DNA from: an uncultured Candidatus Peribacteria bacterium
GTDB taxonomy: Bacteria > Patescibacteriota > Gracilibacteria > Peribacterales > Peribacteraceae
Direction of reading: 5' to 3'
Assembly: GCA_964558895.1 (NCBI GenBank)
Contig: CAZLFU010000001.1
Location: forward strand, 1 to 63,197
DNA length: 63,197 bases
A program made the position numbers and the translations under genes. The notes beneath the pieces are model-generated. The model had not been told where the DNA came from. It was given only the letters and a program-made list of their open reading frames with translations, and searched no databases. Every line of letters begins with the position of its first letter. The first letter of the stretch is position 1. Shown piece after piece: positions 7,108-27,628 of this stretch.

Positions 7108-7491
7108 CTACTGTCTAAGGACTATGGTTCTAATTCCTGTTTCAGGCGGTGGTCCCTCTGCAGTGAATTGCCAAGGGGGTTGATTAAGAATCGACTCAGG
7201 TAGTGTAACCAGCAAAACACTCGAAACTACAGGGGTTCGTATTTCAATAGTCATGCTTGATGACACCGATGTTTCTGATTTATGAGCAGACAAGCAATGT
7301 CCTGCATCACATGATGTCTTCTTTTCGGATTCATGCTCTTTATGGGGACAATCGTCACAATCTTCGTGCATCGAACTCACGTTTTGCATTGACAGTTCTA
7401 CTGGCATAGCATTTGCGATGGGCATCGTGCAGAAGCTACCGATGACAGCGTGAAGTCCAAAAGCCAGTGCAATCAGTTTTTTCTTGAACAT
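7108..7491 (-). CDS. Secreted Cys/His-rich protein (possible metal binding)
   Basis: Signal peptide 'MFKKKLIALAFGLHAVIGSFCTMPIANA'. 'HEDCDDCPHKEHESEKKTSCDAGHCLSAH'. Last gene of the copper cluster. Confidence 0.5.
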   Translation of the reverse strand: MFKKKLIALAFGLHAVIGSFCTMPIANAMPVELSMQNVSSMHEDCDDCPHKEHESEKKTSCDAGHCLSAHKSETSVSSSMTIEIRTPVVSSVLLVTLPESILNQPPWQFTAEGPPPETGIRTIVLRQ

Positions 7492-7651
7492 TTCACAGTG
7501 ATTATAGCGTATATTCGGAAATAATGGAGATATTGCTTTCGATGGTTTCGAGCCTCGTAATTTCAGATCAAAATTGGGAGATCAAATGGAAGAAACCCTT
7601 TGATGTAGTGGCAAAAACTACTAAAGCCAAGATGGGTAAACCGAAGTCTGA

Positions 7652-7805
7652 AATTGGCTCCGAACATTGAACCAAGCGAGAACCGAAATTAAGGACAATT
7701 GGGAAAGATTAGAAACAGCCTTTTCTTTGCCGCACAGAGCCGTAGCTTGATTGTTCTCCGATCCTGTTTTTTACAAAATGACACAAACGTGTCATGGTGA
7801 AGGCG
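7652..7805 (+). repeat. att-like module copy 1 (orphan 31-codon tail + hairpin)
   Basis: TGG at 7655 through TGA at 7748-7750 encodes WLRTLNQARTEIKDNWERLETAFSLPHRAVA*. Hairpin ATGACAC/GTGTCAT at 7778-7795. An in-frame TGA lies two codons upstream, so there is no gene body. Confidence 0.8.
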
Positions 7806-7849
7806 TGCTGGAATAATCTTCCATCCATTGCACACTAAATTTACCCTTT

Positions 7850-8272
7850 CTATTTCGCGTCAAAATCAATCATCCATTCAATGCCATATTTGTCTCTAAA
7901 CATTCCAAAATAGGAACCCCAAGGACTGTCAGCCATAGGCATTTCTATTGTTCCACCTGCTGAAAGTCCGTTAAAGAATTTGTCTGCTTCTTCTTTGCTT
8001 TCTGCACTGATTGAAATTTTACTTCTGTTTTCATTTTCGTTTACCTTCCCCAAAATTTCTGGAATGTCATTTGCTATTAAGATGTTTTTGCCGATAGGCA
8101 AAGCAATCCGCATTATTTTATTTTCCTCATTTTCTGCGACCGGAAATTCGGGGCTTGCTATGTCTTTGAAACGTATAATTTTTGCGAACTCTCCACCAAA
8201 TACTGATTTATAAAATGTAAATGCTTCTTCTGCATTTCCGTTGAAGTTAATCCAAGGATTGATAACTACCAT
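7850..8272 (-). CDS. VOC/glyoxalase-fold protein (PhnB-like)
   Basis: 'INPWINFNGNAEEAFTFYKSVFGG...MPMADSPWGSYFGMFRDKYGIEWMI' is typical of the PhnB-like family. Start set at ATG 8272 (the track start is GTG). Confidence 0.7.
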   Translation of the reverse strand: MVVINPWINFNGNAEEAFTFYKSVFGGEFAKIIRFKDIASPEFPVAENEENKIMRIALPIGKNILIANDIPEILGKVNENENRSKISISAESKEEADKFFNGLSAGGTIEMPMADSPWGSYFGMFRDKYGIEWMIDFDAK

Positions 8273-8326
8273 AATTTTTATGGTAAATAACACCTAACCA
8301 AAGTGCAAGTTATTTATGGTCGTACA

Positions 8327-8480
8327 AATTGGCTCCGAACGCTGTACGAAGCGAGAACCGAAATCAAGGAGACATGGCAAAGACTCGAAAGTGCATTTTC
8401 ACTGCTACACAGCGCCGCAGTTTAGCGTTTTAGCGATATCGAATTTCAAGAAATGACACGAAAGTGCCATGGTGCAGACA
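8327..8480 (+). repeat. att-like module copy 2
   Basis: TGG at 8330 through TAG at 8423-8425 encodes WLRTLYEARTEIKETWQRLESAFSLLHSAAV*. Hairpin ATGACAC/GTGCCAT at 8453-8470. Confidence 0.8.
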
Positions 8481-8596
8481 TATCTTTTTTAGGGATGTAT
8501 CTATCTTTATATGCTTTCTATTTGATCGCTGAAGCCGTTATAGCAATGTGAAACACATTATTTACAGTAGAAATTAATGTGGTAATATACACAATA

Positions 8597-11109: not shown

Positions 11110-11117
11110 ATGAAATA

Positions 11118-13231: not shown

Positions 13232-13243
13232 AAAATTGAGGGA

Positions 13244-13645: not shown

Positions 13646-13679
13646 ATTATTAAAAGATTGTTATAAATATGTCAAGTTT

Positions 13680-14012
13680 ATGGATAAATCCGATATTGAA
13701 GGCATATTAGAACGGGCCTATGAGTTTATTGAGGCCAATTCGGTCAGGGGTCATTCCACAGTGGATGATGTCATGATGGTCTCTCCTCATACTCATTCGC
13801 TCGATTCTGTACTGGCCTATATCTATCAGCAAAGAGCGGAAGTGGGTGATCAAATCACTCAGTTGCTCGAAACACGAATATTGGATCTGCGTAATGAAAT
13901 AGACATATTAGCCTTTTTATACCAAGCAGACGAGGATTCTTTGGCACGTGCTCATAAAGCCAAGCAGGATATAGCAGAAACTATTAGAGCGCATTTCCAC
14001 AAAACGACATGA
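13680..14012 (+). CDS. Hypothetical helical protein (110 aa)
   Basis: ATG at 13680 avoids overlap with speH. ATGA overlap with the next gene. No family recognised. Confidence 0.4.
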   Translation: MDKSDIEGILERAYEFIEANSVRGHSTVDDVMMVSPHTHSLDSVLAYIYQQRAEVGDQITQLLETRILDLRNEIDILAFLYQADEDSLARAHKAKQDIAETIRAHFHKTT

Positions 14013-14833
14013 ATTTACCAAGCCCTTTCGGTACGGATGAACCTCGTAAGGCAAGCGACTGTCGTCCAGGTGGAGATGATTTGGCGAATATCCAAAAAGA
14101 TCGCTCGGTTTTTCGAGCAGAGGAGGGTTCTCTGCGAGTATCGGGAGACAAGGTGTTCTATACAATTCAAGGGGAGGGCGTATCTATGGGTTCACCTGCA
14201 TCTTTTTTGCGTTTGCATAATTGCAATTTGAAATGTTCTTGGTGCGATGCATGGTACACATGGAATACGGATAGCGTAGAATTTTGGACGGAGAGCGTAC
14301 TGTGGACTATCGAAGAAACACGGAGAAATATTGAATCAAGTTGGGGATGCGAGAATGTTGCGATTTCCAAAAGATTGGTTGTGACTGGCGGCGAGCCATT
14401 GATTCAGCAGCAGGGAATTGAATCATTGTTAGGTGATATGAAAGATTGGTCTGTTGAAATAGAAACAAATGGCACTATTCTTCCCTCTGACTATCTTCTC
14501 AATCGTTGCCAATTTAATTGTTCCCCTAAACTAAGTAATTCTGGGAATCAGGTTCAGCGTCGCATCAGGGCAGATGTATTGAAAGTATTGAATCAGGCTA
14601 ATACGAATTTTAAATTTGTAGTACGCGACGAAGATGATGTTGAGGAAGTCGATACTGATTTTATCCAACCCCATTCTCTTGATGCGAATAAGGTTATTCT
14701 AATGCCCGAAGGCGTGACGATGGGGGAAGTGGCTGAGAATGCAAGGAAGGTAGTTGAGCTAACCAAAAAGAAGGGCTATCGCCTGCTTAATCGTTTGCAC
14801 TGCGATATATGGGGAGCAAAGCGTGCGGTATAG
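14009..14833 (+). CDS. QueE-like radical SAM enzyme (7-carboxy-7-deazaguanine synthase family) with a ~45-aa N-terminal extension
   Basis: 'FYTIQGEGVSMGSPASFLRLHNCNLKCSWCDAWYTW' is the QueE-type CxxxCxxC context. 'VVTGGEPLIQ'. Confidence 0.7.
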   Translation: MNLPSPFGTDEPRKASDCRPGGDDLANIQKDRSVFRAEEGSLRVSGDKVFYTIQGEGVSMGSPASFLRLHNCNLKCSWCDAWYTWNTDSVEFWTESVLWTIEETRRNIESSWGCENVAISKRLVVTGGEPLIQQQGIESLLGDMKDWSVEIETNGTILPSDYLLNRCQFNCSPKLSNSGNQVQRRIRADVLKVLNQANTNFKFVVRDEDDVEEVDTDFIQPHSLDANKVILMPEGVTMGEVAENARKVVELTKKKGYRLLNRLHCDIWGAKRAV

Positions 14834-14872
14834 GAAATGCAGTGTGTGACGTATTTGAATAAATATTTTATT

Positions 14873-15027
14873 CATTGGCTCCGAACCCTGTACCACGCGA
14901 GAACCGAGATTAAGGATACTTGGGAAAGACTTGAAACAGCGTTTTCCTTGCTGCACAGGGCGGCTGTTTGATTGTTTGTATTTTGCGTTTCTCGAACAAA
15001 TGACACATGTGTGCCATGGCGCAGCCG
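14873..15027 (+). repeat. att-like module copy 3
   Basis: TGG at 14876 through TGA at 14969-14971 encodes WLRTLYHARTEIKDTWERLETAFSLLHRAAV*. Hairpin ATGACAC/GTGCCAT at 15000-15017. Confidence 0.8.
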
Positions 15028-15072
15028 TGCCAAAGTTGATCAATCAAATAAAATATGTAAAAGTACTCTCTT

Positions 15073-15540
15073 ATGCAAAAGACGCATCAAGATAGAAAAT
15101 GGTTGGCGATTGCAGCGAGTTCAGTATTCGTGATTGCAGTGATCTTGGTTCAAATTATTTTCTTTCAAGGTGATTACATTTGGTGGATTTCATATCAACC
15201 ACTCTCTCCTTTGTCTTGGGATCAGATAGGCACTGTTACATTCCGCACGTTGGGCGCACTCCTTTATGGAACCGGATTTTATCTAGCGCTATATAGAGGC
15301 ATGAAAGCCCTGGGCTTTACTTTTGCGGATTATAAATACGTCAAACTCTTCGTTTGGCTTTCATTGATGGTGATTGTGGATTGGATACAGCGTTTCGTGG
15401 TTTATGGGTTCAACGAACTCTGGTCTCTATATTGGAATGTCATTCGATTGATAGTTTTTCTGTTTCCTTCTTACTGCATTATTATATTGGGATTCTTGGC
15501 ATTCTTCTTGGTTAGAAGAGCTTTGAAAAGAAAGATTTAA
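15073..15540 (+). CDS. Hypothetical integral membrane protein (4 predicted TM helices)
   Basis: Hydrophobic segments throughout; no family recognised. Confidence 0.5.
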   Translation: MQKTHQDRKWLAIAASSVFVIAVILVQIIFFQGDYIWWISYQPLSPLSWDQIGTVTFRTLGALLYGTGFYLALYRGMKALGFTFADYKYVKLFVWLSLMVIVDWIQRFVVYGFNELWSLYWNVIRLIVFLFPSYCIIILGFLAFFLVRRALKRKI

Positions 15541-15558
15541 CCGTGCAACAAATCATCT

Positions 15559-15780
15559 ATGAAGAAAAAGAGCCAAAAACCAGACATGATCATCAAGACG
15601 GGCAGAAGTGAAATACATCTCTATTCACACTATGAGAAGGACCCAGAGAAGGCGCGTCAGGCGAAAGAGGAATTCGACAGAGGACTCCGGTACATAGCCA
15701 AGCAGGGCGGTTGGCTAGATGCATTGGAAGAAAGGGATGCTGCTCTCGCAAGGCTTATGCAGTTATTGCCTCTCGATTAG
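15559..15780 (+). CDS. Hypothetical small protein (73 aa)
   Basis: ORF only; follows the membrane protein gene after 18 nt. Confidence 0.35.
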   Translation: MKKKSQKPDMIIKTGRSEIHLYSHYEKDPEKARQAKEEFDRGLRYIAKQGGWLDALEERDAALARLMQLLPLD

Positions 15781-16790
15781 CGACTGCGTTTTCTCTCCAA
15801 GAACAGGCTCTTTGATGGAACCCAGTCACGTGCGAGCTCATCAGCCTTTTGCAGCCAGCGATCAATTCTATCTTCAGGGGCTACGGATTCACCCCAGTAT
15901 TCAACGAACACTGCATCTTCGAGGCGTGCTGCTGCTTCCATCATTTCATTTTCAATGAGCTTCAGTGCGCGTTCAATATAGATTCCACCCTCATCGTCAT
16001 TATCAGGATTCGCCACGCTTCCAGCGGAAAACAGATCTCTTGCCTGATGGCAAAGAACGCCATGATAGGTAAGCAAATAGAGAACAGCATCATCGTACTT
16101 GTCCCTTGATCTGCCGGACTGCACGATCTTTGGACACAGCAATGCAGCTTCCGCACGCATTTTTGTTTTTTCTTCCATGGACAGTTTCGTGTAGAGGCGT
16201 GCTTGCACAGGAAGGGTGTGTCCAGGGTCGTCTGGTGAATCTTCCAACCACCACATGCGCTCACCTGGCTTTAAGCGACCACGCGCATAGGCGCGAATGT
16301 GGCGCATCTTGTCTTCCATCGGCAAGTCGCGGAATTCATCGTATGAAATTCCCATTTGCTCGAACAATGATTTCTCCGCTGCTATTTCCACTTCAAAGCG
16401 AGGAACGTGAGAAGTGCGCACATGCATAACGCATTTGTCGTATTCGTCCCATCGTACTTCGGGAGTTCCACCCATTTTGCCAAACACGAGGAAGATCTTT
16501 TTCACTTCCTTGATGCGGTTTGTTTCCAGCACGCTATTCGCAACGCTTCGCCAGGTGTCGCTCGTTGTGAATTTTACTTCAATGCCGAAATCGCCGATTG
16601 CTACATCTGGAAACGCTTGCGGATGCGGGTCAAAATCAATAGCCACTTTCATTCCCTTCATTATTTCCTGCGCGACTTCCCTAACTCGATCCTCAAATTC
16701 TTTGGAGGACTGAAATGGTTTTTGCCTAGCCTCTGCGGTCAATGTCTCGCAGATGGCTTTCAGTATTTTCTCAAAATCTTGCTGGGTCAT
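15777..16790 (-). CDS. Probable type II restriction endonuclease (PD-(D/E)xK)
   Basis: 'FPDVAIGDFGIEVKFT' gives a D...E-x-K catalytic pattern. Immediately downstream of a C5 methyltransferase on the same strand. Confidence 0.5.
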   Translation of the reverse strand: MTQQDFEKILKAICETLTAEARQKPFQSSKEFEDRVREVAQEIMKGMKVAIDFDPHPQAFPDVAIGDFGIEVKFTTSDTWRSVANSVLETNRIKEVKKIFLVFGKMGGTPEVRWDEYDKCVMHVRTSHVPRFEVEIAAEKSLFEQMGISYDEFRDLPMEDKMRHIRAYARGRLKPGERMWWLEDSPDDPGHTLPVQARLYTKLSMEEKTKMRAEAALLCPKIVQSGRSRDKYDDAVLYLLTYHGVLCHQARDLFSAGSVANPDNDDEGGIYIERALKLIENEMMEAAARLEDAVFVEYWGESVAPEDRIDRWLQKADELARDWVPSKSLFLERKRSR

Positions 16791-16824
16791 TGAGCGTTAT
16801 CTTGCTCGCAAACCGCATAATTGT

Positions 16825-17841
16825 CTATTTCTGCTTATCGAGGCAATCCTGTACCGCTTTTGCCAAATGCCAAGCAAAGACCGGCGCTACTGCATTGCCA
16901 ACCTGTCTTTCAGTTTCCCTTAACTTTGAATCAAAAATAAAGTCGTCTGGGAATGACTGGAAACGCGCTGCTTCTCTCATAGAGATGCGACGGCGCAGTT
17001 TGTAGTGGAACTGAATGTTGCCATGGCACTCTGCACGAATCGTATAGCCAGGACGTTCGGCAATTAGTTTCCTATTTCCCTGTTCGGAGCTTTTGTTAGC
17101 GCGACTCCAAACATGATTAAGATTTTCATTTTCAGGCATTGATTCCAGATCGCATATCGCCTCACGAGCAGTTATATGCTTATCCTTGGTTAAAGGTGCA
17201 ACAGGAGGATTGAAGTCAGCCACCTCTGGGCGAGTTCCTACAATAATCACCCTTTCGCGCGTCTGTGGAACGCCATAATCAGCCGCGTTGTAGAGCTTGA
17301 ACGAAATGTTGTAACCAAGAGCTTTAAAATCAGCAAGAACACGCTTTAAAGAATCTTCATTGTGCTTCATCAGCAATCCTTTCACATTTTCAGCCAAGAA
17401 AATCTTTGGCTGCACTCTTGATACCACTTCAACCATTGCCCGATAGAGACCGCTGCGCTTACCGTCTACACCGGCTCCTTTGCCGTTTACAGATATGTCC
17501 TGACAAGGAAAGCCCCCGATAACCACATCTGCCGTTTGGGGCATTTGATCCATTACTTGCCAAATATCTCCAGTCACGATGTCGGCCCCAACATTCTTTT
17601 TGTAGGTCCTGCAAGCAGCTTCATTAAGTTCATTCGCCCAAATGATTTCAAATGGCAAACGTTCATATTGCTTACCAAGAGACTTAAAATCTCCTCTGAA
17701 ACCCAAATCCATCCCGCCACAACCAGAGAATAGAGAAATAACCGAAAAAGTTCTTACTGGCTGCTGCATTCCAAGCTCAATGGCACGTTTAGTTATTGTT
17801 CCGATTTTTATTTCCTTTGGAGGTGCGATTGTTGGATTCAT
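16825..17841 (-). CDS. DNA (cytosine-5)-methyltransferase
   Basis: 'LFSGCGGMDLGF' (motif I), 'GGFPCQDIS' (motif IV), 'ENV', 'QTRER', 'GNAVAP'. Confidence 0.9.
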   Translation of the reverse strand: MNPTIAPPKEIKIGTITKRAIELGMQQPVRTFSVISLFSGCGGMDLGFRGDFKSLGKQYERLPFEIIWANELNEAACRTYKKNVGADIVTGDIWQVMDQMPQTADVVIGGFPCQDISVNGKGAGVDGKRSGLYRAMVEVVSRVQPKIFLAENVKGLLMKHNEDSLKRVLADFKALGYNISFKLYNAADYGVPQTRERVIIVGTRPEVADFNPPVAPLTKDKHITAREAICDLESMPENENLNHVWSRANKSSEQGNRKLIAERPGYTIRAECHGNIQFHYKLRRRISMREAARFQSFPDDFIFDSKLRETERQVGNAVAPVFAWHLAKAVQDCLDKQK

Positions 17842-17980
17842 CGGTGCGAATTATACATGGTTAACTCGGCACGCCCCACGCAAAATATGTCATTCTGGCA
17901 ACAAAGTAGCAGTTTTTCATATCCCATTCAGATAAACAGACGTTCTATATGCTCATAGAACAATCTGATAGATCGGTATA

Positions 17981-18406
17981 ATGATCAAGATGGAAACTCG
18001 TCGCAGAATAGGCAGACAAAGTGGTCGCCCTTCCAGTGCTACACCAGAAAAATTAGCAGTACTTATCGCTGCTATAGAGCATGGCTTTAGTTTAATTGAA
18101 TCGCTCCAACAAGCTGCATTATCGGATGATGCCTATCGGCGACTGATTAAAAAAAGCCCCAAGTTCCGTCAGGAAATTACAGCTGCCAAGATGAAATTAG
18201 TAATGCTTGCTCGTTCTAGTGTTGCCCGTTCAATCAATGAAGGGGATATGGCTACCGTTCGTTGGTATCTTGAACGGAAATGCCCAGAGGAATTCAGTAT
18301 GAGAGTTGTTAAAGATAAATCAGACAATCCACTGCCAGAAGGCACGGTGATTGTGCTGCCTGGTAGTCACCCTCATCCGCGAATTATCCCCGAAGAAAAG
18401 GATTAG
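17981..18406 (+). CDS. HTH DNA-binding protein (small-terminase-like / regulator)
   Basis: N-terminal basic HTH-like region. 'ATVRWYLERKCPEEF' resembles the C-terminal motif of phage small terminase/HTH proteins. Assignment is tentative. Confidence 0.4.
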   Translation: MIKMETRRRIGRQSGRPSSATPEKLAVLIAAIEHGFSLIESLQQAALSDDAYRRLIKKSPKFRQEITAAKMKLVMLARSSVARSINEGDMATVRWYLERKCPEEFSMRVVKDKSDNPLPEGTVIVLPGSHPHPRIIPEEKD

Positions 18407-18442
18407 ATCTAAATTCTCGCTATGTCCAACACAGCCGGAATG

Positions 18443-20236
18443 CTACTTCCAATGCTTACCAAACAATGGATGTTTGGGTGTAAGGACTATTACTGCCTCA
18501 TCTTCGATTTTACCTCCTGTGAGCTGTTCGGCTCCTGTGCCAAAATCCAAATCCTTAATTGTTCCCTCTTGATTCAAAGTAACTATGTATTGGAATTTTA
18601 AACCTTCACCTTCTTTTTTCATTAAAAAATTATAAAGGTGAACGAAATGTGCCTTATCAATCCCATCAAAAATTCCATCGTGAATTAAAAAGCGAGGACA
18701 ATGTATATTTTTTTCAATTGCATGGAATAAGACTGCAAGATCATAAATCAATGTGCGCCCCTTATTCTTACCGTATGAAAGATTTGATGGAATTATTACA
18801 TCCATATTAACCTTGGAATCCTTGTTCTTATTTGCAGAAAATACAAAATTTGCCTCATCTTTATTCTCTGCATAAATAGCATCGTGAACAAAGAAAAATA
18901 TCCTTCTAAAATCTTTTAACTGTTCTTTTATCTCAATACAAAATTGTTCGATCTCTGCATAGAGTGTAATGCTCGCTTTCTCCCTCTCTGTTACTTCTCT
19001 GCTTAAATCCTGATAAGTTTTTAGCTTTCCTTCAAGATCACTCAACCTCTCTCTTTTTTTACTTAAATCTAAATATGCTTCTGACAAATCCTTAATAGCC
19101 TCTTTGGCAGAGAGAAATTCGAAGAGTTGAGCACGTTTCTTTTCAAGCTCGGAAATCCGTTTTTCTTTTGTAGAAATTGTCGCTGTTAATTCAGTAACTT
19201 CTGATTCTAAAAATTCTTTCCTTGATTGTGCGATCTTCTTTCTGAATTTAATCGCCTCTTCCAAAGTTTTCTTGATATTATTTGCTAGCAGCTCATTCAA
19301 TTCCTTATACAGATTCTTTATCTTTGTGGGACGTATATCCTCATCGTCATAAGAAAAGCTTTCCTGATAGGCTTCAATTTGTTTGCGATCAGTAAAATTC
19401 TGATGCCAAAGCTCCTTAATCTCTTCGGTTAATTTATTCGATTGTGCTTCTACATCGGCATACTGACTAGCTAATTCAAACTTCCGTATGTGCTGCTCAA
19501 AGACAGAGATATTAGCTTGTAATTTATCCAGTTCACTTTCAGCCTGTCCGATGTCTTTCAAGTTATAAGTATCCTCCACGAGAGATTTAACTTCTCTTAA
19601 TGCCGGTTTCTTTGCTTTTATTTCCGAAATGATTTCGTAATTTTTCTGAAACAACCTATTGCTGATTCCCAGCAAAAATAAATGCAATGGTATTAGTTCA
19701 ATTTCTTTCGCTCTATCATGCAAATAGTTGATCGGATCTTTAAAGTTAGTTTTCGTATTAGACGATTGCGCTTTAATAAAAAAAGGCATTAATTTCCTAA
19801 ACCACGTATTTGAATATTTCCCTTCATAAGTCTCATTCTTAAAAATCAGATCACAAAGAATTTTGCTCAATTCATGATCGGTAGAAGTATGCCTGTATTC
19901 ATTTAGAGTTCCCGTCTTTTTGCCAAACATGATTTCTTTATTTGGATTCTGGAAACCTCTTTTTATAACATAAAGATCGTCCCCAACATAAAACTCAAGA
20001 ACAATCTTGTATTCTTCCAAATCATTATTCGCCTTTGCAGATTTAATATGACTAGTCTCACCAGACAGAAGGCAATAATCAATTAGGTTTAATAGCAAAG
20101 ATTTTCCTAAACCATTCAATGACTTCCTGCTGTCTCCATCTTCACCCTTTTTTGCATATACGAAATTGAATCCAGGCTTGAATTCAACGGCTTCAAATAA
20201 ACCTGCCGGCTCTGAATATAATTTATGCAGGAACAT
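18443..20236 (-). CDS. SMC-like ABC ATPase with long coiled coil (DUF2326 / ABC-three-component-system type, tentative)
   Basis: Walker A 'LNGLGKSLLLNLI'; ~250-aa coiled-coil-like Lys/Glu-rich middle; C-terminal 'RFLIHDGIFDGID' (Walker B/D-loop-like). Confidence 0.55.
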   Translation of the reverse strand: MFLHKLYSEPAGLFEAVEFKPGFNFVYAKKGEDGDSRKSLNGLGKSLLLNLIDYCLLSGETSHIKSAKANNDLEEYKIVLEFYVGDDLYVIKRGFQNPNKEIMFGKKTGTLNEYRHTSTDHELSKILCDLIFKNETYEGKYSNTWFRKLMPFFIKAQSSNTKTNFKDPINYLHDRAKEIELIPLHLFLLGISNRLFQKNYEIISEIKAKKPALREVKSLVEDTYNLKDIGQAESELDKLQANISVFEQHIRKFELASQYADVEAQSNKLTEEIKELWHQNFTDRKQIEAYQESFSYDDEDIRPTKIKNLYKELNELLANNIKKTLEEAIKFRKKIAQSRKEFLESEVTELTATISTKEKRISELEKKRAQLFEFLSAKEAIKDLSEAYLDLSKKRERLSDLEGKLKTYQDLSREVTEREKASITLYAEIEQFCIEIKEQLKDFRRIFFFVHDAIYAENKDEANFVFSANKNKDSKVNMDVIIPSNLSYGKNKGRTLIYDLAVLFHAIEKNIHCPRFLIHDGIFDGIDKAHFVHLYNFLMKKEGEGLKFQYIVTLNQEGTIKDLDFGTGAEQLTGGKIEDEAVIVLTPKHPLFGKHWK

Positions 20237-20465
20237 TTGTTTGCTTTAGAAAGATTTTATAATCATTGATTTCTATCAGATCTGCCGACCAAAGAAAGGT
20301 AAGCAAATCAAAATATCTTTTGATATTTAATTTTTTATTCCTCTCACTCAATTCCTGAAAAAGACTTTCAATATCATGCACCCTTTGTTTCAGCGCAGCA
20401 ATTGCCCACCCTCCCATTACAAGAAGATTGTCGTTAATATTCTCATATTTGGTTGGATAAAGCAT
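20223..20465 (-). CDS. Small helical protein, candidate ABC-3C 'middle component'
   Basis: 80 aa. Overlaps the ATPase gene by 14 nt and lies 2 nt after the upstream gene. The position matches the 3-gene architecture. Confidence 0.4.
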   Translation of the reverse strand: MLYPTKYENINDNLLVMGGWAIAALKQRVHDIESLFQELSERNKKLNIKRYFDLLTFLWSADLIEINDYKIFLKQTNVPA

Positions 20466-20467
20466 AG

Positions 20468-21061
20468 TTAGAAAAGTTGAGGATTTTGAGAATTTGCTCT
20501 TTCCGTTTCAGTTGCAGTCTTCTTGCCTATGTCACACTTCTCAAACACCAACAAGATGATCGCAATGCAAATATACAGAGCCTTTGAATTACCTCGATGA
20601 GTTTCTGGGAGATAATGTTTTGCCAAATCAACGATATGGTTTGCATCTTCCATTTTGTGATCACAACTTTCACTGTTGCAAAGAGATCTATATTCCCTTT
20701 GGACATCGAATACGAATCCAGTGACCACTTCTGGTTCTTTATCTCCTAATAAAACTTCGATTTCATTTTTATGTATCCATACCTTGCGAAACATAAGCTT
20801 AACATCCGTGGCTGCATTCGCAGTAAAATTTAATTCGATCTTCTCTTTTAAATCTCGCAGATAATCCGTGCCTGTCTGCATTGTTGAATCTTCAGGCGTA
20901 ACAGTTTGATTGGCAAAAATATGTTCCAGTATTTCAACGACTAATATTCTATCCGCTTCCTCTGTCTTTGCTTCCTCTGAATAATTCAAATTAACAGTGC
21001 TTCCACCATCTGCTTGAACTTGTATGGATTTGTTGCCGGCAGATTGATTCTGATCACTCAT
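20468..21061 (-). CDS. Candidate effector component of the ABC-3C-like operon (197 aa, no recognised domain)
   Basis: Operon position. The N-terminal 'QNQSAGNKSIQVQA' motif is shared with the upstream small TM protein. Confidence 0.35.
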   Translation of the reverse strand: MSDQNQSAGNKSIQVQADGGSTVNLNYSEEAKTEEADRILVVEILEHIFANQTVTPEDSTMQTGTDYLRDLKEKIELNFTANAATDVKLMFRKVWIHKNEIEVLLGDKEPEVVTGFVFDVQREYRSLCNSESCDHKMEDANHIVDLAKHYLPETHRGNSKALYICIAIILLVFEKCDIGKKTATETERANSQNPQLF

Positions 21062-21261
21062 GAATTTCCTCCGAGATGGATTTTTGAGTCATTTTGAGCT
21101 TGATACTGCTTCGATCCATTTCCTGCTGATTGATTCTGCGTATGATGAATCTTTGTAATATTTTTATTAGTCACAAAAAACCCAATAACAGCCACGAGTG
21201 TCGTGACTAACAGGGAGATTAATTCAGTAAGTGCGGGGTTGGCGTTTAGGTATTCAAGCAT
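21058..21261 (-). CDS. Small single-pass membrane protein (67 aa)
   Basis: TM helix 'LISLLVTTLVAVIGFFV'. ATGA overlap with the next gene. First gene of the 4-gene operon. Confidence 0.45.
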   Translation of the reverse strand: MLEYLNANPALTELISLLVTTLVAVIGFFVTNKNITKIHHTQNQSAGNGSKQYQAQNDSKIHLGGNS

Positions 21262-21471
21262 GGGCGCGAGTTTACCCTTTTTATATCCGCAGTTGTACTA
21301 GAAATTTGCTACCCCTTGCAGAATATCGCCACTGCACAAGTAACCAATGCCTTGGGAGGCTTTTGGATATACCCCAGACGCATCTTTGCTTCTTGAATGA
21401 CAAAGGGTGCATCGCGAAGATTCGGATACACCACAGGTCGTTTATGCAGACCGAAGCCCTGACAAATAATG

Positions 21472-21741
21472 CTACTTATTTGCCAGTATCCATTGTTGGG
21501 CTTTGTTCGCCCACGTTAGCGGCAGTTTCACTTTTGCCAGTTCTGCGCCGTTCCCAATGATCTTCAACATGCCTTTGCCCCATCCTAAACCGTCTACGGA
21601 TACTGTCGTAACATCTTTCAATGGCACACGAAAATTGTGGCTGTATACATCCTTAAATTCCAAGAAGCCGTTTTCGATGATCAATGTCTTGCCGCCGAGT
21701 AAGCCGCCAACGCGGTACTTTTTCTTTTCACTGTTTGCCAT
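21472..21741 (-). CDS. Bacterial PH-domain-like small protein (89 aa)
   Basis: 'KTLIIENGFLEFKD...VPLKDVTTVSVDG...GMLKIIGNGAELAKVKL' resembles the bPH/YokE-like beta-sandwich + helix pattern. Tentative. Confidence 0.4.
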   Translation of the reverse strand: MANSEKKKYRVGGLLGGKTLIIENGFLEFKDVYSHNFRVPLKDVTTVSVDGLGWGKGMLKIIGNGAELAKVKLPLTWANKAQQWILANK

Positions 21742-21782
21742 GGAAAGAGGGGGGAAGAGGCAGAACAGGTGGTATCGCCAAA

Positions 21783-21912
21783 GCGGGTATCCGACCTGGT
21801 AGCCTCAACATCGTTGCCCCGAAGAGCTAGACAGTGAGCAGGTGGATACCCGCTACGACCGTCTAGGAGCGCATAAATGCGCCCACGGAGCTTAAATAAC
21901 GATGGAGGCTAC
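21783..21912 (-). ncRNA. Candidate structured RNA or DNA element with crossing (pseudoknot-type) helices
   Basis: Helix gcgggtatcc (21783-92) / ggatacccgc (21844-53). Helix gtagcctc..atcgtt (21799-815) / aacgat.gaggctac (21898-912). Helix ctagac (21827-32) / gtctag (21861-66). C(UUCG)G-type hairpin on the minus strand (21816-27). G-U pairs favour the minus strand. Confidence 0.3.
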
Positions 21913-22049
21913 GGATGCATTATATGTTTTTACGGGTAAAAGTACACAAATGAGGTTTTTCAGTGCTTGGAATCCGCGAAATAGAAATAAGGATTAAGGT
22001 TTTAAATAAGCCAAATCTTTCAAAAATTGCATGAAATACCGCGGATAAA

Positions 22050-22817
22050 ATGCGGCATTTAAGGCGGCGATCTTTTGAAGAGAAAATGTATAATTACCGT
22101 GCTTTCCACTCAACATTGATCACAAAAGACTCCATTGGCGAATTGCGTGAGATTCATAAAAGACTCATGGCTATCGCCAAGCCTGGCATGGAAATTTATG
22201 CGGTCCTTGCCAATGACTTTGTTCCTTTCCTTGAATCGCATTCTTTCTTAAAGGAGGAATTTCAAAGGCGAGCGGAATATGAACAAGACCCCAATGAATT
22301 CATGGCTTATGATCTTTTTGAGAAGACGCCATCATTCAGATTTGTATCTGAATTATTGAAAGATTCCGATCACCGGCTTTCCAATCTGATTGATAGAGAA
22401 GAATTTTTTAGGGCTCAACAATTCATTTCTGATGTGTGCCTTGAATTGATTTCGTTCGCTGCCACAGCTTCGAAAAAAGCAGTACCCATTGAAAAGAATA
22501 AACGTGGCAAGGGAAGACCAAAGGAGTCCCAGTTCAAGAACGGCAACATTTACACCGCTATGGCAACTGTAAAAATCCGAAGTAATCCTCCCGTGACTCG
22601 CCTGTGCGAGAAAATGTTTGGAGTACCGATCGGCAAAACGATTCATTGGATTGATTTGTATGCACACGTGTACGAAGAGACTGAATCACCGCGCGATGGC
22701 TGGAGAAAGCTCGTTGCGATTATTCAGCGAATCAATGAAAACATGACCAACAGCGGCGAGGAGCCGATATTTAAGTTTGAAGGAGTAGAAAGCGGGAAAA
22801 TCACTAGGCTCTACTGA
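22050..22817 (+). CDS. Hypothetical protein (255 aa), basic C-terminal half possibly DNA-binding
   Basis: ORF with 'KNKRGKGRPKES' basic patch; no family recognised. Confidence 0.45.
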   Translation: MRHLRRRSFEEKMYNYRAFHSTLITKDSIGELREIHKRLMAIAKPGMEIYAVLANDFVPFLESHSFLKEEFQRRAEYEQDPNEFMAYDLFEKTPSFRFVSELLKDSDHRLSNLIDREEFFRAQQFISDVCLELISFAATASKKAVPIEKNKRGKGRPKESQFKNGNIYTAMATVKIRSNPPVTRLCEKMFGVPIGKTIHWIDLYAHVYEETESPRDGWRKLVAIIQRINENMTNSGEEPIFKFEGVESGKITRLY

Positions 22818-22884
22818 AATTTGCCGTGACCGTTGCCGTGACTCCCGTGACTAGGCGTGATTTTCGTTGCCTACGATCGCGGCG

Positions 22885-23493
22885 ATGGAAAGCCTGGTCG
22901 CCGTCGGCAATGCGTTGAATCTCTATCTTCGAGAAGTCGAAGCGCAGCGTGCATTGTGTGAAAAGTATTTGCCGACTGCTGCTATTCACAGCAAAGGACA
23001 GGAGTTACAGATATATCGTCAGTTTGATCGTCGTGAAGAAACCGCAGCATCCATCCGTAAATTTGGAGACTTACTGCCCAGTTGGGATACGACACTCGAA
23101 TGGGCAACGCAGAAGAATCATTTGATCAAAGTGCAAAAATCCATAGAAAGGAGAATGGAGAAGCATTCAAGACAGCATCCGATCTACACACGCGGTGTTG
23201 AGTGGGAACATCGTCCAGTTCTGATACATGCTTACAAATTTGAACCTGACCCGATATTAAAATTGGAGATTGTACTGCCTGTGGTAAAACGACACATCGA
23301 AGAATTGTCAGTGCATGTTCTTTGCTGTGCTCTGCGATGTCACGAGTACCTTGTTCCTGAATTCGTTGCACCGGCAAAGCCACCGTATGAAAGACATGAA
23401 ACAGAATTTTTAACACTCACAGAATACTTGTCGCAAACGATGCCGAAAGGGCTGCATGTGACAGAGGCAATTTCTTTCATCAAACCAAAATGA
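22885..23493 (+). CDS. Hypothetical protein (~202 aa)
   Basis: ORF; first ATG at 22885 (track start 22867 is TTG); followed by a hairpin. Confidence 0.4.
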   Translation: MESLVAVGNALNLYLREVEAQRALCEKYLPTAAIHSKGQELQIYRQFDRREETAASIRKFGDLLPSWDTTLEWATQKNHLIKVQKSIERRMEKHSRQHPIYTRGVEWEHRPVLIHAYKFEPDPILKLEIVLPVVKRHIEELSVHVLCCALRCHEYLVPEFVAPAKPPYERHETEFLTLTEYLSQTMPKGLHVTEAISFIKPK

Positions 23494-23522
23494 AAATAGA
23501 TACAAGTTAAACGTGCGTAGTG

Positions 23523-23582
23523 GGGATGCCCTGCACTCTTTCACGAGTGGAAAGCCAGGGCATCCCTTCTGTGCATTTTTTA
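23523..23582 (+). terminator. Probable terminator hairpin
   Basis: gggatgccctg (23523-33) / cagggcatccc (23556-66), an 11-bp stem followed by a T-rich tract. The loop is long (22 nt). Confidence 0.4.
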
Positions 23583-23601
23583 TTTTTATCCCCCATTTGT
23601 T

Positions 23602-23910
23602 ATGACAATTGACGCATTAGAATTATCGAATGACTCAACAATAAAAGAAGTTTTTGCATCCGATAAAGACTTTCAAAAGGCAGTATCAGAATTAACCAGC
23701 GCAGTCGCCGATGTTGATTTTGGTCATGTCTGCACATCTGTTTTGGGTGATGGTATCGCGATTGTCTTTATCGAGAGATGTATGCTTCAAGATTTAAAGA
23801 AATACGTTGATCAAACTGAAGACGGAAAAGAAACGCTCAAAGCCATGATCAATTATATGGAGACGAATTATGCCGAGGAGTCCCTTATTTTCAGAGTGAT
23901 AGAAGGCTGA
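23602..23910 (+). CDS. Hypothetical acidic protein (102 aa) directly upstream of the recombinase
   Basis: ORF only. The position is compatible with a recombination directionality factor or regulator (inference). Confidence 0.4.
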   Translation: MTIDALELSNDSTIKEVFASDKDFQKAVSELTSAVADVDFGHVCTSVLGDGIAIVFIERCMLQDLKKYVDQTEDGKETLKAMINYMETNYAEESLIFRVIEG

Positions 23911-23969
23911 ATTGGCTTACAAAAGCCAAGATAGACGATATAAGAATCCTATTTTTCCACCAATATTCT

Positions 23970-25502
23970 ATGAAACATGTCCAATCCTTCACCATTGGCT
24001 ACATCCGAAAGTCCACGGACACCGAGGACAAACAAGTGCGTTCATTGGAAGACCAGGAAAAACTCGTGCGGGAACAATATGAAAGTATGCCGCCAGAAGA
24101 AAAATTATTTCCGCTGAAAATAATGCTGGAATCAAGAAGTGCCTACCATCCTGGTAGACCGGTGTTTAATGAGATAATAGAAATGGCGGATAGAAAACAG
24201 GTTCATCGCATTATGGTTCTTGATCCAACACGACTTTCCCGCAATATGGAAGATGCTGGAAAGCTCATACAGAAATTAGCCGACGGTAAAATCCAAGACA
24301 TTCTTACCGCCAGCGGAAAGACTTATTGTCGAAGCGATACAGGGCAACTCCTGATGCTCATGCTTGAAACGACAATGGGCTGGAAAGATAGTGCCGACAA
24401 AGGAGCGCGAGTAAAAATTGGCATGAGGCAGAAAGCAAAAGAAGGCGGTTCAACCGGTCCTGCGCCCATTGGTTACAGGAACGTTGGAATGACCAAAGGG
24501 AAGAAATGGCTAGAAATTGACCCCGACACAGGACCCAAAGTGAAGAGTTTGTTTCTTCTGGCATCCACTTCTGCCTATTCATTGTCTGCTCTTTGTGTAG
24601 AAGCAAAGAAAATCGGTTTACGGACAAAGCCCACAAGGAAGCACATACATGGATTGCCAATCAAGCAAAGCACCATGCATCAAGTACTTCGGAATCCAAC
24701 CTATAAGGCGCTTAAAGTGTATCAAGGTGAAAGGTGTCAGGCATCTCATGCCCCCTTGGTGGAAACCGAAGTATGGGAGCGTGTGCAGATTATTCTTTCG
24801 GGACGCAGAACCAACACATGCAGATCGAAAGATGAATTGAAGCGCGAATTGTTCCTCCTTGCGGGATGCACTCGCTGCGGCAAGTGTAAGACTCACACGA
24901 TGAGTCCCGAAGGACCCAAGAAGGGGAAGTACATTTACTATTCCTGCAAGAATCGTAATTCACATTGCCGGAACTCCATTGAGCAGACCGTTCTCATGGA
25001 TCAGTTCCATGAAAAGCTCTCTCTATTGCAGGTGGAAGATGAGGATATGCCTTTCATGCGAGAGACGATGAAGAAAGACCATGAGCTGTATTACAACAAC
25101 TTCCAGGGTAAGCGCGAAGCCCTGGAGCGTGAGTATGCGCAGAACGAAAAGGACATTGGTGATATTTTCGCCCAGAGAGAGGATGCCCGTAAAATGGGCG
25201 TCCTCGATACGATAGATGCCAAACTGGTTACTCTGAAAGCAAAGAAAGAAGAGATACAGAACGCCTTAAATGAACTGCATGACACCAGCAATGACTGGAT
25301 TAATCATGTTTTGAGATGCTTCGAACTCGTGAAATTGGCTCAAGAAGCCATAAAGTATGGGTCTCCCGTTACCAGGAGCGCAATCATCAAATCGCTCGGC
25401 TCGAACTTCTATGTATGTGACGGGAAGCTAGTCTGTGATTGGGTTTCTCCCTTCCGACAGAAGGCAGAAAGTGAGGGTCGTACAATATGGCTCCCCCGGT
25501 AG
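23970..25502 (+). CDS. Large serine recombinase (integrase)
   Basis: 'IGYIRKSTDTEDKQVRSLEDQ' catalytic Ser region; 'RIMVLDPTRLSRN'; recombinase domain; Zn-ribbon 'CTRCGKC...YYSCKNRNSHC'; coiled-coil region. The last 15 nt overlap tRNA-Asn. Confidence 0.9.
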   Translation: MKHVQSFTIGYIRKSTDTEDKQVRSLEDQEKLVREQYESMPPEEKLFPLKIMLESRSAYHPGRPVFNEIIEMADRKQVHRIMVLDPTRLSRNMEDAGKLIQKLADGKIQDILTASGKTYCRSDTGQLLMLMLETTMGWKDSADKGARVKIGMRQKAKEGGSTGPAPIGYRNVGMTKGKKWLEIDPDTGPKVKSLFLLASTSAYSLSALCVEAKKIGLRTKPTRKHIHGLPIKQSTMHQVLRNPTYKALKVYQGERCQASHAPLVETEVWERVQIILSGRRTNTCRSKDELKRELFLLAGCTRCGKCKTHTMSPEGPKKGKYIYYSCKNRNSHCRNSIEQTVLMDQFHEKLSLLQVEDEDMPFMRETMKKDHELYYNNFQGKREALEREYAQNEKDIGDIFAQREDARKMGVLDTIDAKLVTLKAKKEEIQNALNELHDTSNDWINHVLRCFELVKLAQEAIKYGSPVTRSAIIKSLGSNFYVCDGKLVCDWVSPFRQKAESEGRTIWLPR

Positions 25503-25562
25503 GATTCGAACCTACGACCCAGCGGTTAACAGCCGCTTGCTCTACCACTGAGCTACAGGGGA
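25488..25562 (-). tRNA. tRNA-Asn (anticodon GTT), CCA encoded
   Basis: The reverse complement folds as a cloverleaf: acceptor TCCCCTG/CGGGGGA, D arm GCTC-AGTGGTA-GAGC, anticodon loop CTGTTAA, T arm GTAGG-TTCGAAT-CCTAC, then G-CCA. Length 75 nt. Confidence 0.9.
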
Positions 25563-25713: not shown

Positions 25714-27033
25714 TCAATGGACTATTTTGCAGCTTCCGTCTTTGCATCGCGGCCTTCTGTCTGCAATGTATTGGTAGACCCTTCTGCCTATTGGAGCGAC
25801 TCCAGGAAGGTGCAACAGGGGCTTGAGAGGCCAGAGAGTTGGTAGAGATCCTGCCAAGGATCGGAAGGCATCAAAGCCATCGAGAAGGTGGCCATCTGGC
25901 AGGCGGATATGAAGAGAGGTGAGCAACTCGTTCTTTGTCTTCGCGGGTGCATATTTTTTTCTCATGGCTGCATCATGCAAATTTACGATGCGTATGCGCT
26001 GCAGATGATCTGCAATACTTAGGAGAAACACAGATCGCATACAGAGAGAGCACTGCCCATCGTACAAAATAACGACAGAGTCTTTTGTATGCCTGTTGAA
26101 CCATGTACGAAGCACAGAGAAGTCTCTTTCTTGTAACGCGCCAAGGTATGCAGTGAACATAGCAAAGCAAAAAGAGCCCACATTCATGAGTATAAAAATA
26201 CTGCCGTGGAACAGAATGCCAAAGAACAGAAGAATGCGTTTGAGCGAATGTCGGCGAATCCAGAGTGGTAATTTTTGAGTGACAGAACGAGGGGTCAGAA
26301 GGAGCACCCACAAAAACTGCCACACAAGTGTGAGGTGGGTAGGGAGAGAAGAGTACGTTGCGAGTACGTCCATCACAGGCTTGGGCCATTTTGCAAAATG
26401 TGTATGGTGAAGTGCTGTTGCAATCGCAGTACCATCGTGCCACATATCACCCAAATATTTATCCCATGCAGAGGTGATGTATACCACTATCAATTGCCAG
26501 ATAAGAAGTCGATAGGGCCAGATGGACATAGTGAGAGGTGGCAGTAGCTTCTTATTCTTTTGCCACGATTTCCACTGATCCCCCAAACGATCGAGGGAGA
26601 AGGCTCTCAATTCTGGACTGATAAGCAGAAGGAAACCAACAACCCGAAGCATCGTATCTCCTCCATTGAGAGGTAGTCCATTGCGTTCATGAAAGGAAAA
26701 AAGAAGAAGAACACTCAAGCTAGTAGTAATGCGTGTCCACTTTCCAAGAGCGCAGCAGATGAGGAGTAGGATCAGAAGAATATAGAGTGCGTACACTGCT
26801 TCTGGTTTCGTGATGATATCCAGAATACTAAAGCGGTCATGAATGCGGGTGATAAGAGAAAGATCATCAACTGGTACCATCCCAGCATTGGAATAGAGCC
26901 ACCAAACATCCGGAGCTTTGAAGAGAAAGAACCCCAAGGTGATTGTTGCCCACGCAATGCGCATCATGCCAAAGCCACTTGCAGAAATAGACTGAAAGAA
27001 AAAAGCCTGGATGGAGAGGAAAAATTTACGCAT
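25714..27033 (-). CDS. HTTM-domain membrane protein fused to a C-terminal DCC-family thiol-disulfide oxidoreductase
   Basis: 'FGMMRIAWATITLGFFLF...WWLYSNAGMVP' is HTTM-like with multiple TM helices. C-terminal 'VILYDGQCSLCMRSVFLL' is DCC/DUF393. Start set at ATG 27033; the track N-terminus reads through a palindromic repeat. Confidence 0.65.
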   Translation of the reverse strand: MRKFFLSIQAFFFQSISASGFGMMRIAWATITLGFFLFKAPDVWWLYSNAGMVPVDDLSLITRIHDRFSILDIITKPEAVYALYILLILLLICCALGKWTRITTSLSVLLLFSFHERNGLPLNGGDTMLRVVGFLLLISPELRAFSLDRLGDQWKSWQKNKKLLPPLTMSIWPYRLLIWQLIVVYITSAWDKYLGDMWHDGTAIATALHHTHFAKWPKPVMDVLATYSSLPTHLTLVWQFLWVLLLTPRSVTQKLPLWIRRHSLKRILLFFGILFHGSIFILMNVGSFCFAMFTAYLGALQERDFSVLRTWFNRHTKDSVVILYDGQCSLCMRSVFLLSIADHLQRIRIVNLHDAAMRKKYAPAKTKNELLTSLHIRLPDGHLLDGFDAFRSLAGSLPTLWPLKPLLHLPGVAPIGRRVYQYIADRRPRCKDGSCKIVH

Positions 27034-27628
27034 AAGATGGGTGTATGGCACTGATAGTTGGGAATATGGGTTTCGGGTTTCGGGTTTCGGGTTTATCCTC
27101 TTTTTCAATTTCGAACCCGAATTTCGAACCCGAACCCGATACTTCTGGACAACTTGAATCCACTTCAATTCTACTATCCCACTCTGGTTTCCAATTTCTC
27201 CACCACGAGACAGACATCTGGATGCCTTCTTTGGGGATGACATGCCAATGACGGATGAGTCGTATCGGAGTAGTAGGCATCAGACGTAAATTGTCACAAA
27301 ACCGCAACAGATAGCGCTCTTTCAAAATGCCATACTTTGAGTTTTTTTCGTCTAACCTACGTATAATCTTCAAATTATATGCTCTGTTCCACCAGTGAAA
27401 ACTTTCGTGAGATATTCTCTTCTTTTCTTTCCAGGTTTCGTTTTCCAACACTTCCACACTAAATTCTGTTACACGTCTGGTTGGGTTGGGTGCAAAAATA
27501 TTCCAGAGTTGCCACTGGCTGGTTTGTAACACATACGGGACAATCACTTCTCGTGGATGATCTTTGAGCCACTTTGTGAAAGGATCTTTGGCATCTGGTG
27601 CTAGTGCATAGAGCGCAATTGCCGCCAT
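27026..27628 (-). CDS. Hypothetical protein upstream of the HTTM gene; the C-terminal ~40 codons read through a heptamer palindrome
   Basis: ORF with 8-nt overlap to the HTTM gene. The C-terminus 'SGSGSKFGFEIEKEDKPETRNPKP' is encoded by the repeat at 27067-27136. Confidence 0.5.
   Translation of the reverse strand: MAAIALYALAPDAKDPFTKWLKDHPREVIVPYVLQTSQWQLWNIFAPNPTRRVTEFSVEVLENETWKEKKRISHESFHWWNRAYNLKIIRRLDEKNSKYGILKERYLLRFCDNLRLMPTTPIRLIRHWHVIPKEGIQMSVSWWRNWKPEWDSRIEVDSSCPEVSGSGSKFGFEIEKEDKPETRNPKPIFPTISAIHPSYA
27067..27136. repeat. Palindrome built from heptamer repeats
   Basis: (GGGTTTC)x3+GGGTTT at 27067-27093 faces CGAACCCGAATTTCGAACCCGAACCC at 27111-27136. Confidence 0.85.

Follow-up and report, generated by a model that had tools for sequence, protein, structure and literature searches.

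A large serine recombinase gene of Candidatus Peribacteria that is probably split at its own attachment site on integration into tRNA-Asn

Background

In the SSV-type (fusellovirus) archaeal tyrosine integrases the attP site lies within the integrase gene, and integration into a tRNA gene partitions the open reading frame (ORF), which excision restores. In the integration-dependent immunity of mycobacteriophages, attP reportedly lies within the repressor gene and is used by a tyrosine integrase, and the end that integration removes is said to be a degradation tag. Here we describe a locus at which the gene that appears to be cut is that of a large serine recombinase (LSR). The window, by which we mean the whole 63,197-nt stretch (positions 1 to 63,197 of contig CAZLFU010000001.1) of an uncultured Candidatus Peribacteria bacterium, holds an LSR gene that runs into a tRNA-Asn gene, together with three orphan copies of what appears to be the displaced end of such a gene. 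A sequence-only reading of the window had proposed that integration exchanges the C-terminus of the recombinase and was aware of no LSR that behaves in this way; on precedent it was mistaken, as dsiB, the LSR of the ssrA islands of Dehalococcoides, always overlaps attL at its 3' end and crosses it at ssrA (McMurdie et al. 2011, BMC Genomics 12:287, PMC3146451). The authors of that study suggested that dsiB may need the circular element, or the 3' fragment of an adjacent island beside it, to be fully functional; the displaced end was divergent and they doubted its function (PMC3146451).

Results and Discussion

The recombinase gene ends inside tRNA-Asn and three tails begin with the same codons

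The LSR gene (Table 1) encodes 510 amino acids with the C-terminus ...ESEGRTIWLPR. Its body extends to 25487, and the final 15 nt are complementary to the tRNA-Asn gene's 3' end on the opposite strand, which supplies the last five codons (TGG CTC CCC CGG TAG); read in reverse complement, the CCA encoded by the tRNA gene gives the Trp codon TGG, and TGGCTCC is the complement of the final 7 nt of that gene (GGAGCCA). This heptamer is found at 25488 and also at 7655, 8330 and 14876 on the + strand of the window. Taken alone it is not significant (7 matches in the window against 6.3 expected), and this frequency is what would favour the overlap and the shared heptamer being a coincidence, for which there is next to no chance given that the copies at 7655, 8330 and 14876 head a family of direct repeats of ~150 nt (64-73% identical), that these are homologous in frame to full-length homologues of the LSR and that at least nine loci across three tRNA targets show the arrangement, as described below. 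Read in the frame of the TGG codon, the repeats encode WLRTLNQARTEIKDNWERLETAFSLPHRAVA, WLRTLYEARTEIKETWQRLESAFSLLHSAAV and WLRTLYHARTEIKDTWERLETAFSLLHRAAV, in each case a peptide of 30 residues followed by a stop; we refer to these as tails 1, 2 and 3. What the sequence-only reading had said of the ORF, its overlap with the tRNA and the shared, in-phase TGGCTCC all held when checked with ARAGORN, translation and repeat comparison, and the fused product that it gave is what 25487 joined to 14876 would encode.

The protein has the features by which LSRs are recognised, and so is assigned to them on its sequence and predicted structure. Pfam matched Resolvase (E 1e-14, residues 9-160), Recombinase (E 1e-8) and Zn_ribbon_recom (E 1e-4; 22.9 bits, just below the cut-off of 25.3), and in a 25-sequence alignment of the LSR family R13, K14, S15 and T16 were invariant, as were C303, C306, C326 and C333. 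The AlphaFold model contains long helices at 359-401, 412-436 and 440-463, with a predicted local distance difference test (pLDDT) score of 70-90, in agreement with the coiled coil of this class. The nearest solved structure is the SPbeta integrase YokA/SprA (E 7e-11, LSR residues 8-439). The protein is not a Ccr recombinase, as it scored 42-45 bits against the NCBIfam CcrA/CcrB models, whose cut-offs are 700-900.

Homology to sister elements breaks at the core

Related loci (numbered L001 onwards) were obtained through identity look-up and a scan across species-representative genomes, and come mostly from Candidatus Peribacteria/Peregrinibacteria metagenome-assembled genomes. BLASTN of sister elements against the window showed that for L003 and L031 alike homology starts exactly at 14876, where tail 3 has its TGG; for L003 it ends at 25497, and the flanks on either side are unrelated. 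L001, which is 95% identical to the window over 7.7 kb, is identical through TGGCTCCCC and then follows the tRNA-Asn sequence of a different host. A mobile unit of 14876-25487 bounded by the TGGCTCC core thus appears well supported by these comparisons, and junctions at the core fit site-specific recombination within TGGCTCC and not random deletion. The earlier expectation that junctions would fall at TGGCTCC was borne out only indirectly, by the homology breakpoints, which lie at the core. Cores held in common can be read at the junctions as 7 bp for elements in tRNA-Asn and 10 bp for those in tRNA-His.

Two of the contigs carry little more than the element: CAZOAX010000028.1 (L001/L007; 11917 nt) and CAZRZK010000067.1 (L008; 11688 nt) have only ~50 nt of flank per side, both starting ~48-49 nt left of the tail and ending 50-55 nt inside the tRNA. 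Their ends look like assembly-graph branch points at the att sites, which would fit presence/absence polymorphism or several genomic contexts within the samples concerned.

The tails resemble the native C-terminus of the recombinase family

The LSR body fused to tail 3 was used as the query in a collection of 5.8 billion proteins, and a second, exhaustive HMMER search covered 1.84 billion cluster representatives. LSR homologues were found at 98-35% identity, and the homologues split into two classes at a single point, an invariant Trp (W507 in the family alignment). Beyond this Trp the close homologues (46-98% identity) read WLPRLDSNQ..., WLPDLDSNQEPSR, WGERWG(L/S)NPRP... or WWAG(L/R)DSN..., and these residues are the translated reverse complements of tRNA acceptor stems and T-arms. 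The distant, full-length homologues (25-40% identity), many of them from the planctomycete Frigoriglobus, instead continue with W(C/W)xxLxDVRTEVx(D/E)TxxxLExA(Y/F), a C-terminus that aligns without gaps to WLRTLYHARTEIKDTWERLETAFS of the window tails, and the W...(D/N)VRT signature is kept at 25-30% identity in P0147, P0151, P0152, P0172, P0192 and P0262. That the tails represent the native C-terminus of this LSR family, and an ancestral part of the protein, therefore seems well supported, because the full-length homologues continue past the same Trp with a homologous tail that needs no gap. The sequence-only reading had allowed that homologous recombinases might never carry this tail, or that the tails might be the end of an unrelated chromosomal gene; full-length homologues do carry it and the tails are homologous to LSR C-termini.

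The arrangement recurs with three target tRNAs

In all of the loci where a tRNA abuts the LSR gene (9/9) the CCA of the tRNA forms the in-frame, invariant Trp codon, the targets being tRNA-Asn, tRNA-His and tRNA-Tyr. The residues of the tail that follow Trp change with the target, WL (TGGCTCC) being common to tail and tRNA in the case of tRNA-Asn and WGE (TGGGGCGAGC) in that of tRNA-His, and the tails of Frigoriglobus begin WWSGL/WWAGL, resembling the end of tRNA-Tyr. Orphan tails lie 8 kb upstream of the LSR in L003, exactly 10 kb upstream in L009, 6.5 kb upstream in the tRNA-His type L012 (common core TGGGGCGAGC) and at the far end of the island in L031.

At L003 the LSR is followed by only 10 nt from the tRNA-Asn end (TGGCTCCCCC), after which unrelated DNA of another island begins, and this would account for two homologues, P0002 and P0005, which have long C-termini of neither the tRNA nor the tail type (...IKxILLDAxY...). 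That other island (L003 11527-11700, 11603-21644) carries DUF2779, GmrSD and a 259-aa fragment of a serine recombinase, and there is no tRNA within 10 kb.

Selection on the tail and the architecture of the att sites

Pairwise differences among five tails, counted by codon position, were 40/20/114, and they were 28/20/93 for codons 11-31, which no plausible att arm (~25 bp) would reach. This shows selection on the reading frame and indicates that the tail is probably under purifying selection as protein. As no translation of the tail is possible from the integrated island, selection of this kind must act on the whole gene, either in the excised circle or where an old body is joined to a newer tail, and we regard it as the strongest argument that the exchange of C-termini is biologically meaningful.

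The tail also bears signals at the level of DNA. Nucleotides 1-11 and 22-30 (GCGAGAACC) are invariant or almost so, synonymous sites included, while nucleotides 12-21 vary freely, and the second block resembles the tRNA T-loop TTCGAACC (8/8 in L015, 6/8 in L012 and L002) but sits 5 bp farther from the core than does the T-loop in the tRNA. A shift of this size is described for the zinc-ribbon-domain (ZD) motif of serine integrases, which lies 5 bp closer to the centre in attB than in attP (Rutherford et al. 2013, PMC3783163). A scan of offsets found +5 to be best for the His and Tyr types (9/18) and not for the Asn type, so that the notion that the invariant Arg-Thr codons are the ZD motif of attP is an attractive fit, not statistically convincing for Asn-type sites, and may be taken as an idea and not as a result. 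Dyad symmetry around the core was also considered, with the centre at TGGCT|CC in four sites, and was rejected, since scores of 9-11 of 21 were no better than those of other centres.

These two near-invariant blocks, with the second placed as a ZD motif would be in attP relative to attB, speak for a different reading, namely that the split of the gene is real and the tail has no function as protein, its conservation being a constraint on DNA that would form the P' arm of attP together with a regulatory site downstream. Such a reading would also sit well with the intact, tail-less ORFs that integrated copies retain in many genomes, and with the AlphaFold model of the fused protein, in which the tail is a helix (514-536) after a disordered linker, predicted at low confidence (pLDDT 40-59). 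We nevertheless think it distinctly unlikely, as the strong third-position bias persists in codons 11-31, past the att arm, the tail is conserved as protein among homologues of 25-40% identity whose DNA has diverged, and the signal at the +5 offset is statistically unconvincing for sites of Asn type.

Some 30 nt past the stop of every Asn-type tail there is a palindrome, ATGACAC-N4-GTGNCATGG, followed by G(A/C)AGnCGTGC. It is confined to these post-tail positions, with 3 in the window against 0.13 expected and one per tail in L003, L008, L009 and L031. On the circular form it would lie just downstream of the full-length LSR gene, where it could be a terminator or an operator.

Two further tails point to older islands stacked at the same tRNA

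The evidence points to the two extra tails marking older, decayed islands at the same tRNA, with an order of insertion and subsequent deletions that we infer. Tail 2 is preceded by 12 nt, GGTCGTACAAAT (GRTN), which match the GGTCGTACAATA (GRTI) that precedes the Trp codon of the LSR; it thus looks like a P-core-P' junction, as expected where an older element has received a newer one at the junction nearer the tRNA. In the sequence upstream of tail 1, the frame ...ILLSMVSSLVISDQNWEIKWKKPF... gave the second-best six-frame match to the family hidden Markov model (HMM) in the window (HMM positions 477-509, E = 0.25), and may weakly be assigned as the remnant of a still older LSR body, one frame off the tail. 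An IS1595 fragment was considered for the same stretch (repeat 7519-7547/43257-43285) and rejected, as tblastn with the transposase found nothing there. Neither of the two older segments, E1 and E2, has a recombinase by Pfam. The attL sites of the window, L003, L031 and L012 show no obvious similarity in their non-tRNA arms, and because of this target recognition may rest mainly on the tRNA half-site, which would permit repeated insertion beside the tRNA.

The 12 nt of LSR body ahead of tail 2, the weak body remnant that tail 1 may follow and the lack of recombinases in E1 and E2 would all be at home if the tails were not attL sites but what random deletions had left of the 3' ends of recombinase pseudogenes, and the LSR adjoining the tRNA were a truncated, dead gene. 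This is very improbable: similarity starts exactly at TGG in tail 3, L003, L031 and L012, with unrelated left flanks, sister elements share both ends precisely, the LSR adjoining the tRNA is an intact ORF at 75-98% identity in several other assemblies, and the in-frame reading of CCA as Trp recurs with three different tRNAs.

Proposed mechanism and the points that weigh against it

We consider it very probable that attP lies inside the LSR gene, that integration into tRNA-Asn splits this gene and exchanges its C-terminus, that the tail is under selection and that the extra tails are earlier insertions, the structural part of this interpretation being well supported with a similarly high degree of confidence. 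The region 14876-25487, here called E3, would be an integrative defence island of Candidatus Peribacteria, in the Candidate Phyla Radiation (CPR), mobilised by its own LSR and possibly mobile still. Its attP would lie inside the last ~30 codons of the LSR gene, with crossover within the core TGGCTCC, and insertion at the 3' end of tRNA-Asn would regenerate the tRNA and split the gene. The body would stay beside the tRNA and end as W-L-P-R-stop through tRNA-derived codons, and the natural 30-residue tail WLRTLYHARTEIKDTWERLETAFSLLHRAAV would end up orphaned at attL, on the opposite end of the island, to be rejoined with the body on excision. The tail would be translatable only from the circular form, or where an older body is fused to the tail of a newer element, and would thus matter at the whole-gene stage, most likely for integration or for control of the level or activity of the LSR. 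The two further tails would derive from earlier insertions at the same tRNA whose LSR genes have since been deleted, giving an accretion array. As to the exchange of C-termini first suggested from the sequence alone, the existence of two forms is supported by the homologues and junctions, the Trp being followed in one by 3 residues derived from the tRNA and in the other by 30 derived from the element.

Any role of the tail in directionality, regulation or degradation is speculation. One possibility, tentative and on present evidence unlikely, is that it acts as a directionality or dosage switch, in which only the circle would make a full-length LSR that is integration-proficient (or turned over quickly), the integrated form would be excision-competent or inert, the clade would recognise the T-loop/CCA end of tRNAs and the Arg-Thr codons of the tail would double as the ZD motif of attP. 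If this were true, the physical state of the element would set the activity of the enzyme without, or alongside, a separate recombination directionality factor (RDF).

Several observations weigh against the mechanism that we favour. The full-length homologues are only 25-40% identical to the LSR of the window, and some of them may be fusions of an old body to a new tail in tandem arrays and not attP forms, because L013 (a Frigoriglobus contig, Planctomycetes), whose full-length LSR has a contiguous tail at 11486-11566, carries on that strand another tail, an orphan (16197-16274), 4.6 kb downstream and has no tRNA within 10 kb; L013 may be a tandem array viewed from the other side. The low confidence of the AlphaFold prediction means that no structural role can be read for the tail. 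Within E2, directly upstream of tail 3, there is no sequence like the 3' end of a recombinase. Canonical serine integrases do not recombine attP with attR, so tandem accretion needs a relaxed recognition of the non-tRNA arm. Finally, neither the circular junction nor the empty tRNA site that the sequence-only reading had looked to was found in the databases by exact-pattern scans and a search with the right-flank gene. No attP form of a close relative and no close full-length relative was found, which is weak evidence, as these were narrow searches by exact patterns and word indexes; for the empty tRNA-Asn site, the right-flank gene (25714-27243) had no relatives in species-representative genomes.

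In these searches the P-core-P' junction pattern CGTACAANNTGGCTCCGAAC gave 10 matches in JGI metagenomes, all of high GC and without recombinase homology, which were put down to chance, and 0 matches in IMG/VR. A word-indexed protein search with the final 88 residues of the fused protein gave as its sole candidate an ORF through another orphan tail; it missed even a 98%-identical homologue and so is not usable as evidence of absence. The LSR family alignment had only one distant match (26% identity) among viral contigs, suggesting that this family is not typical of predicted phages.

Island contents and other features of the window

The cargo of E3 (15777-21061) is a defence set, with a type II restriction enzyme (PADLOC E 3e-153) and a C5 DNA methyltransferase, and a DUF2326/LmuB-like protein of 597 aa (PDC-M68B) beside an 80-aa protein like the ABC-3C 'middle component'. 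A 141-aa protein (17981-18406) matches phage small terminase subunit families (PHROG 4102, E 8e-9) and could hint at phage-assisted transfer of the island. Three conserved genes, at 22050-23910, lie directly upstream of the LSR in E3 and also in L001, L003, L004 and L009, and one of them could be a candidate RDF. The older segment E2 carries, at 8579-14833, a GGACT-like cyclotransferase, two radical-SAM proteins (one with SPASM), a glycosyltransferase and an ATP-grasp protein, and looks like a small biosynthetic cluster.

Elsewhere in the window, an exact second copy of the last ~315 nt (3') of the tmRNA gene, spanning the tag-coding region through to the CCA end, lies 7.3 kb downstream (36648-37095, 44100-44414). 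These repeats flank an island that has genes for radical-SAM, HAD, SAM-synthetase and AAA/NUDIX proteins, an IS1595-family transposase and no recombinase or LSR; att repeats are usually far shorter than such a perfect repeat of 300 nt. From ~44060, at the second tmRNA copy, an ATG-initiated frame continues in frame into the tag-peptide sequence.

Table 1. Positions of the features discussed (window coordinates unless a related locus is named)
Feature	Position	Strand	Basis
Element E3, putative integrative island of ~10.6 kb	14876..25487	+	Comparison with L001, L003, L008, L009, L031; Pfam/PADLOC cargo
LSR gene, probable integrated form with exchanged C-terminus	23970..25502	+	Pfam domains, translation, family alignment
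tRNA-Asn(GTT), probable integration target, B' side of attR	25488..25562	-	ARAGORN
Putative attR core TGGCTCC, common to LSR/tRNA junction and tails	25488..25494	+	L001 identity ends just past TGGCTCCCC
Tail 3, putative attL of current element: core, displaced final 30 LSR codons and stop	14876..14971	+	L003/L031 homology starts at 14876
Tail 2, preceded by 12 nt of LSR-like 3' end; attP-like P-core-P' junction	8318..8425	+	Repeat/translation comparison
Tail 1, probably the oldest and most decayed orphan tail	7655..7750	+	Repeat/translation comparison
Direct repeats of ~150 nt	7651-7802, 8326-8477, 14872-15023	+	Repeat comparison
Ala/Val-Arg-Thr codons of tail, GCGAGAACC (GTTCGAACC in L015), T-loop-like	14897-14905		Equivalents in other tails
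Post-tail palindrome, tail 3	15000..15019	+	Motif scan
Post-tail palindrome, tail 2	8453..8472	+	Motif scan
Post-tail palindrome, tail 1	7778..7797	+	Motif scan
Post-tail palindromes in relatives	L003 2064-2083; L008 55-74; L009 74-93; L031 10362-10381		Motif scan
E2, probable older island segment	8330..14875	+	Bounded by tails 2 and 3; Pfam
E1, probable older island segment: tail and one glyoxalase-family gene (- strand)	7655..8329	+	Repeats, Pfam
Possible 3' remnant of a still older LSR body, one frame off tail 1	7488..7654	+	Weak assignment

Significance

LSRs are prized as tools of genome engineering, as they are strictly directional with a direction thought to be set by a separate factor, and here the enzyme itself would change upon integration. 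As the exchanged part is conserved and selected, state-dependent control of recombination can be put to a direct test using short DNA sites and two defined proteins, and the use as target of the nearly universal CCA/acceptor end of tRNAs may interest designers of landing sites. Little is known of the mobile elements of CPR bacteria (Peribacteria/Peregrinibacteria), in which the family appears to be a main vehicle for islands with defence or biosynthetic functions. Annotators should note that many of this family's 'recombinases' in databases finish in translated tRNA (...LDSNQ...), with their true C-termini kilobases away.

Comparison with known systems

A full-text literature search found no description of such an arrangement beyond DsiB. 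Like DsiB of Dehalococcoides (~540 aa), the LSR described here lies at the edge of its island with an ORF that crosses the att site and enters either the RNA gene that is targeted or the island next to it; both systems target a stable RNA gene at its tRNA-like 3' end, and tandem stacks are marked by direct repeats, some of them without an integrase. The target here is, however, the CCA/acceptor end of tRNA-Asn (tRNA-His or tRNA-Tyr in relatives) with a 7-bp core, as against the tmRNA T-loop and a 20-bp repeat in Dehalococcoides, and the hosts are CPR Peribacteria and Planctomycetes. The Dehalococcoides islands have an integration module of six genes, and of its members Pfam, PADLOC and PHROGs revealed no DsiA-type small serine recombinase and no RecF-, ParB- or Mom-like genes among the larger ORFs of E3 (several short ORFs were left unscanned).

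The SSV type shares with the present locus an attP inside the integrase ORF and a gene partitioned by integration, but SSV integrases are tyrosine recombinases of other chemistry and att architecture, and their genes are split into two large parts and inactivated, whereas here the final 30 of 537 codons would be exchanged with the catalytic and DNA-binding domains intact. As in integration-dependent immunity, attP would lie in a coding sequence and integration would alter the C-terminus of a protein, and the tails end in Ala/Val-rich residues (AAV, AVA, AAI; TAA in L012), but the gene that is cut is that of the recombinase and not of a repressor. The Ccr recombinases of SCCmec, likewise LSRs, assemble composite islands in tandem at a conserved gene's 3' end, with an att site in rlmH (orfX) and not in the recombinase gene. 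Canonical phage LSRs (A118/LI, Bxb1, phiC31, SPbeta SprA) have the same domain organisation, and short att sites with a small core are expected of them, but their attP is intergenic, the integrase is unchanged by integration and direction is set by a separate RDF.

The closest parallel thus remains DsiB, from which, compared by its published description only, the present family differs in that the displaced fragment is a conserved and apparently selected C-terminus. The points that are new relative to 2011 are a demonstrably conserved tail, a target at the CCA end of tRNAs and a spread over CPR bacteria and Planctomycetes.

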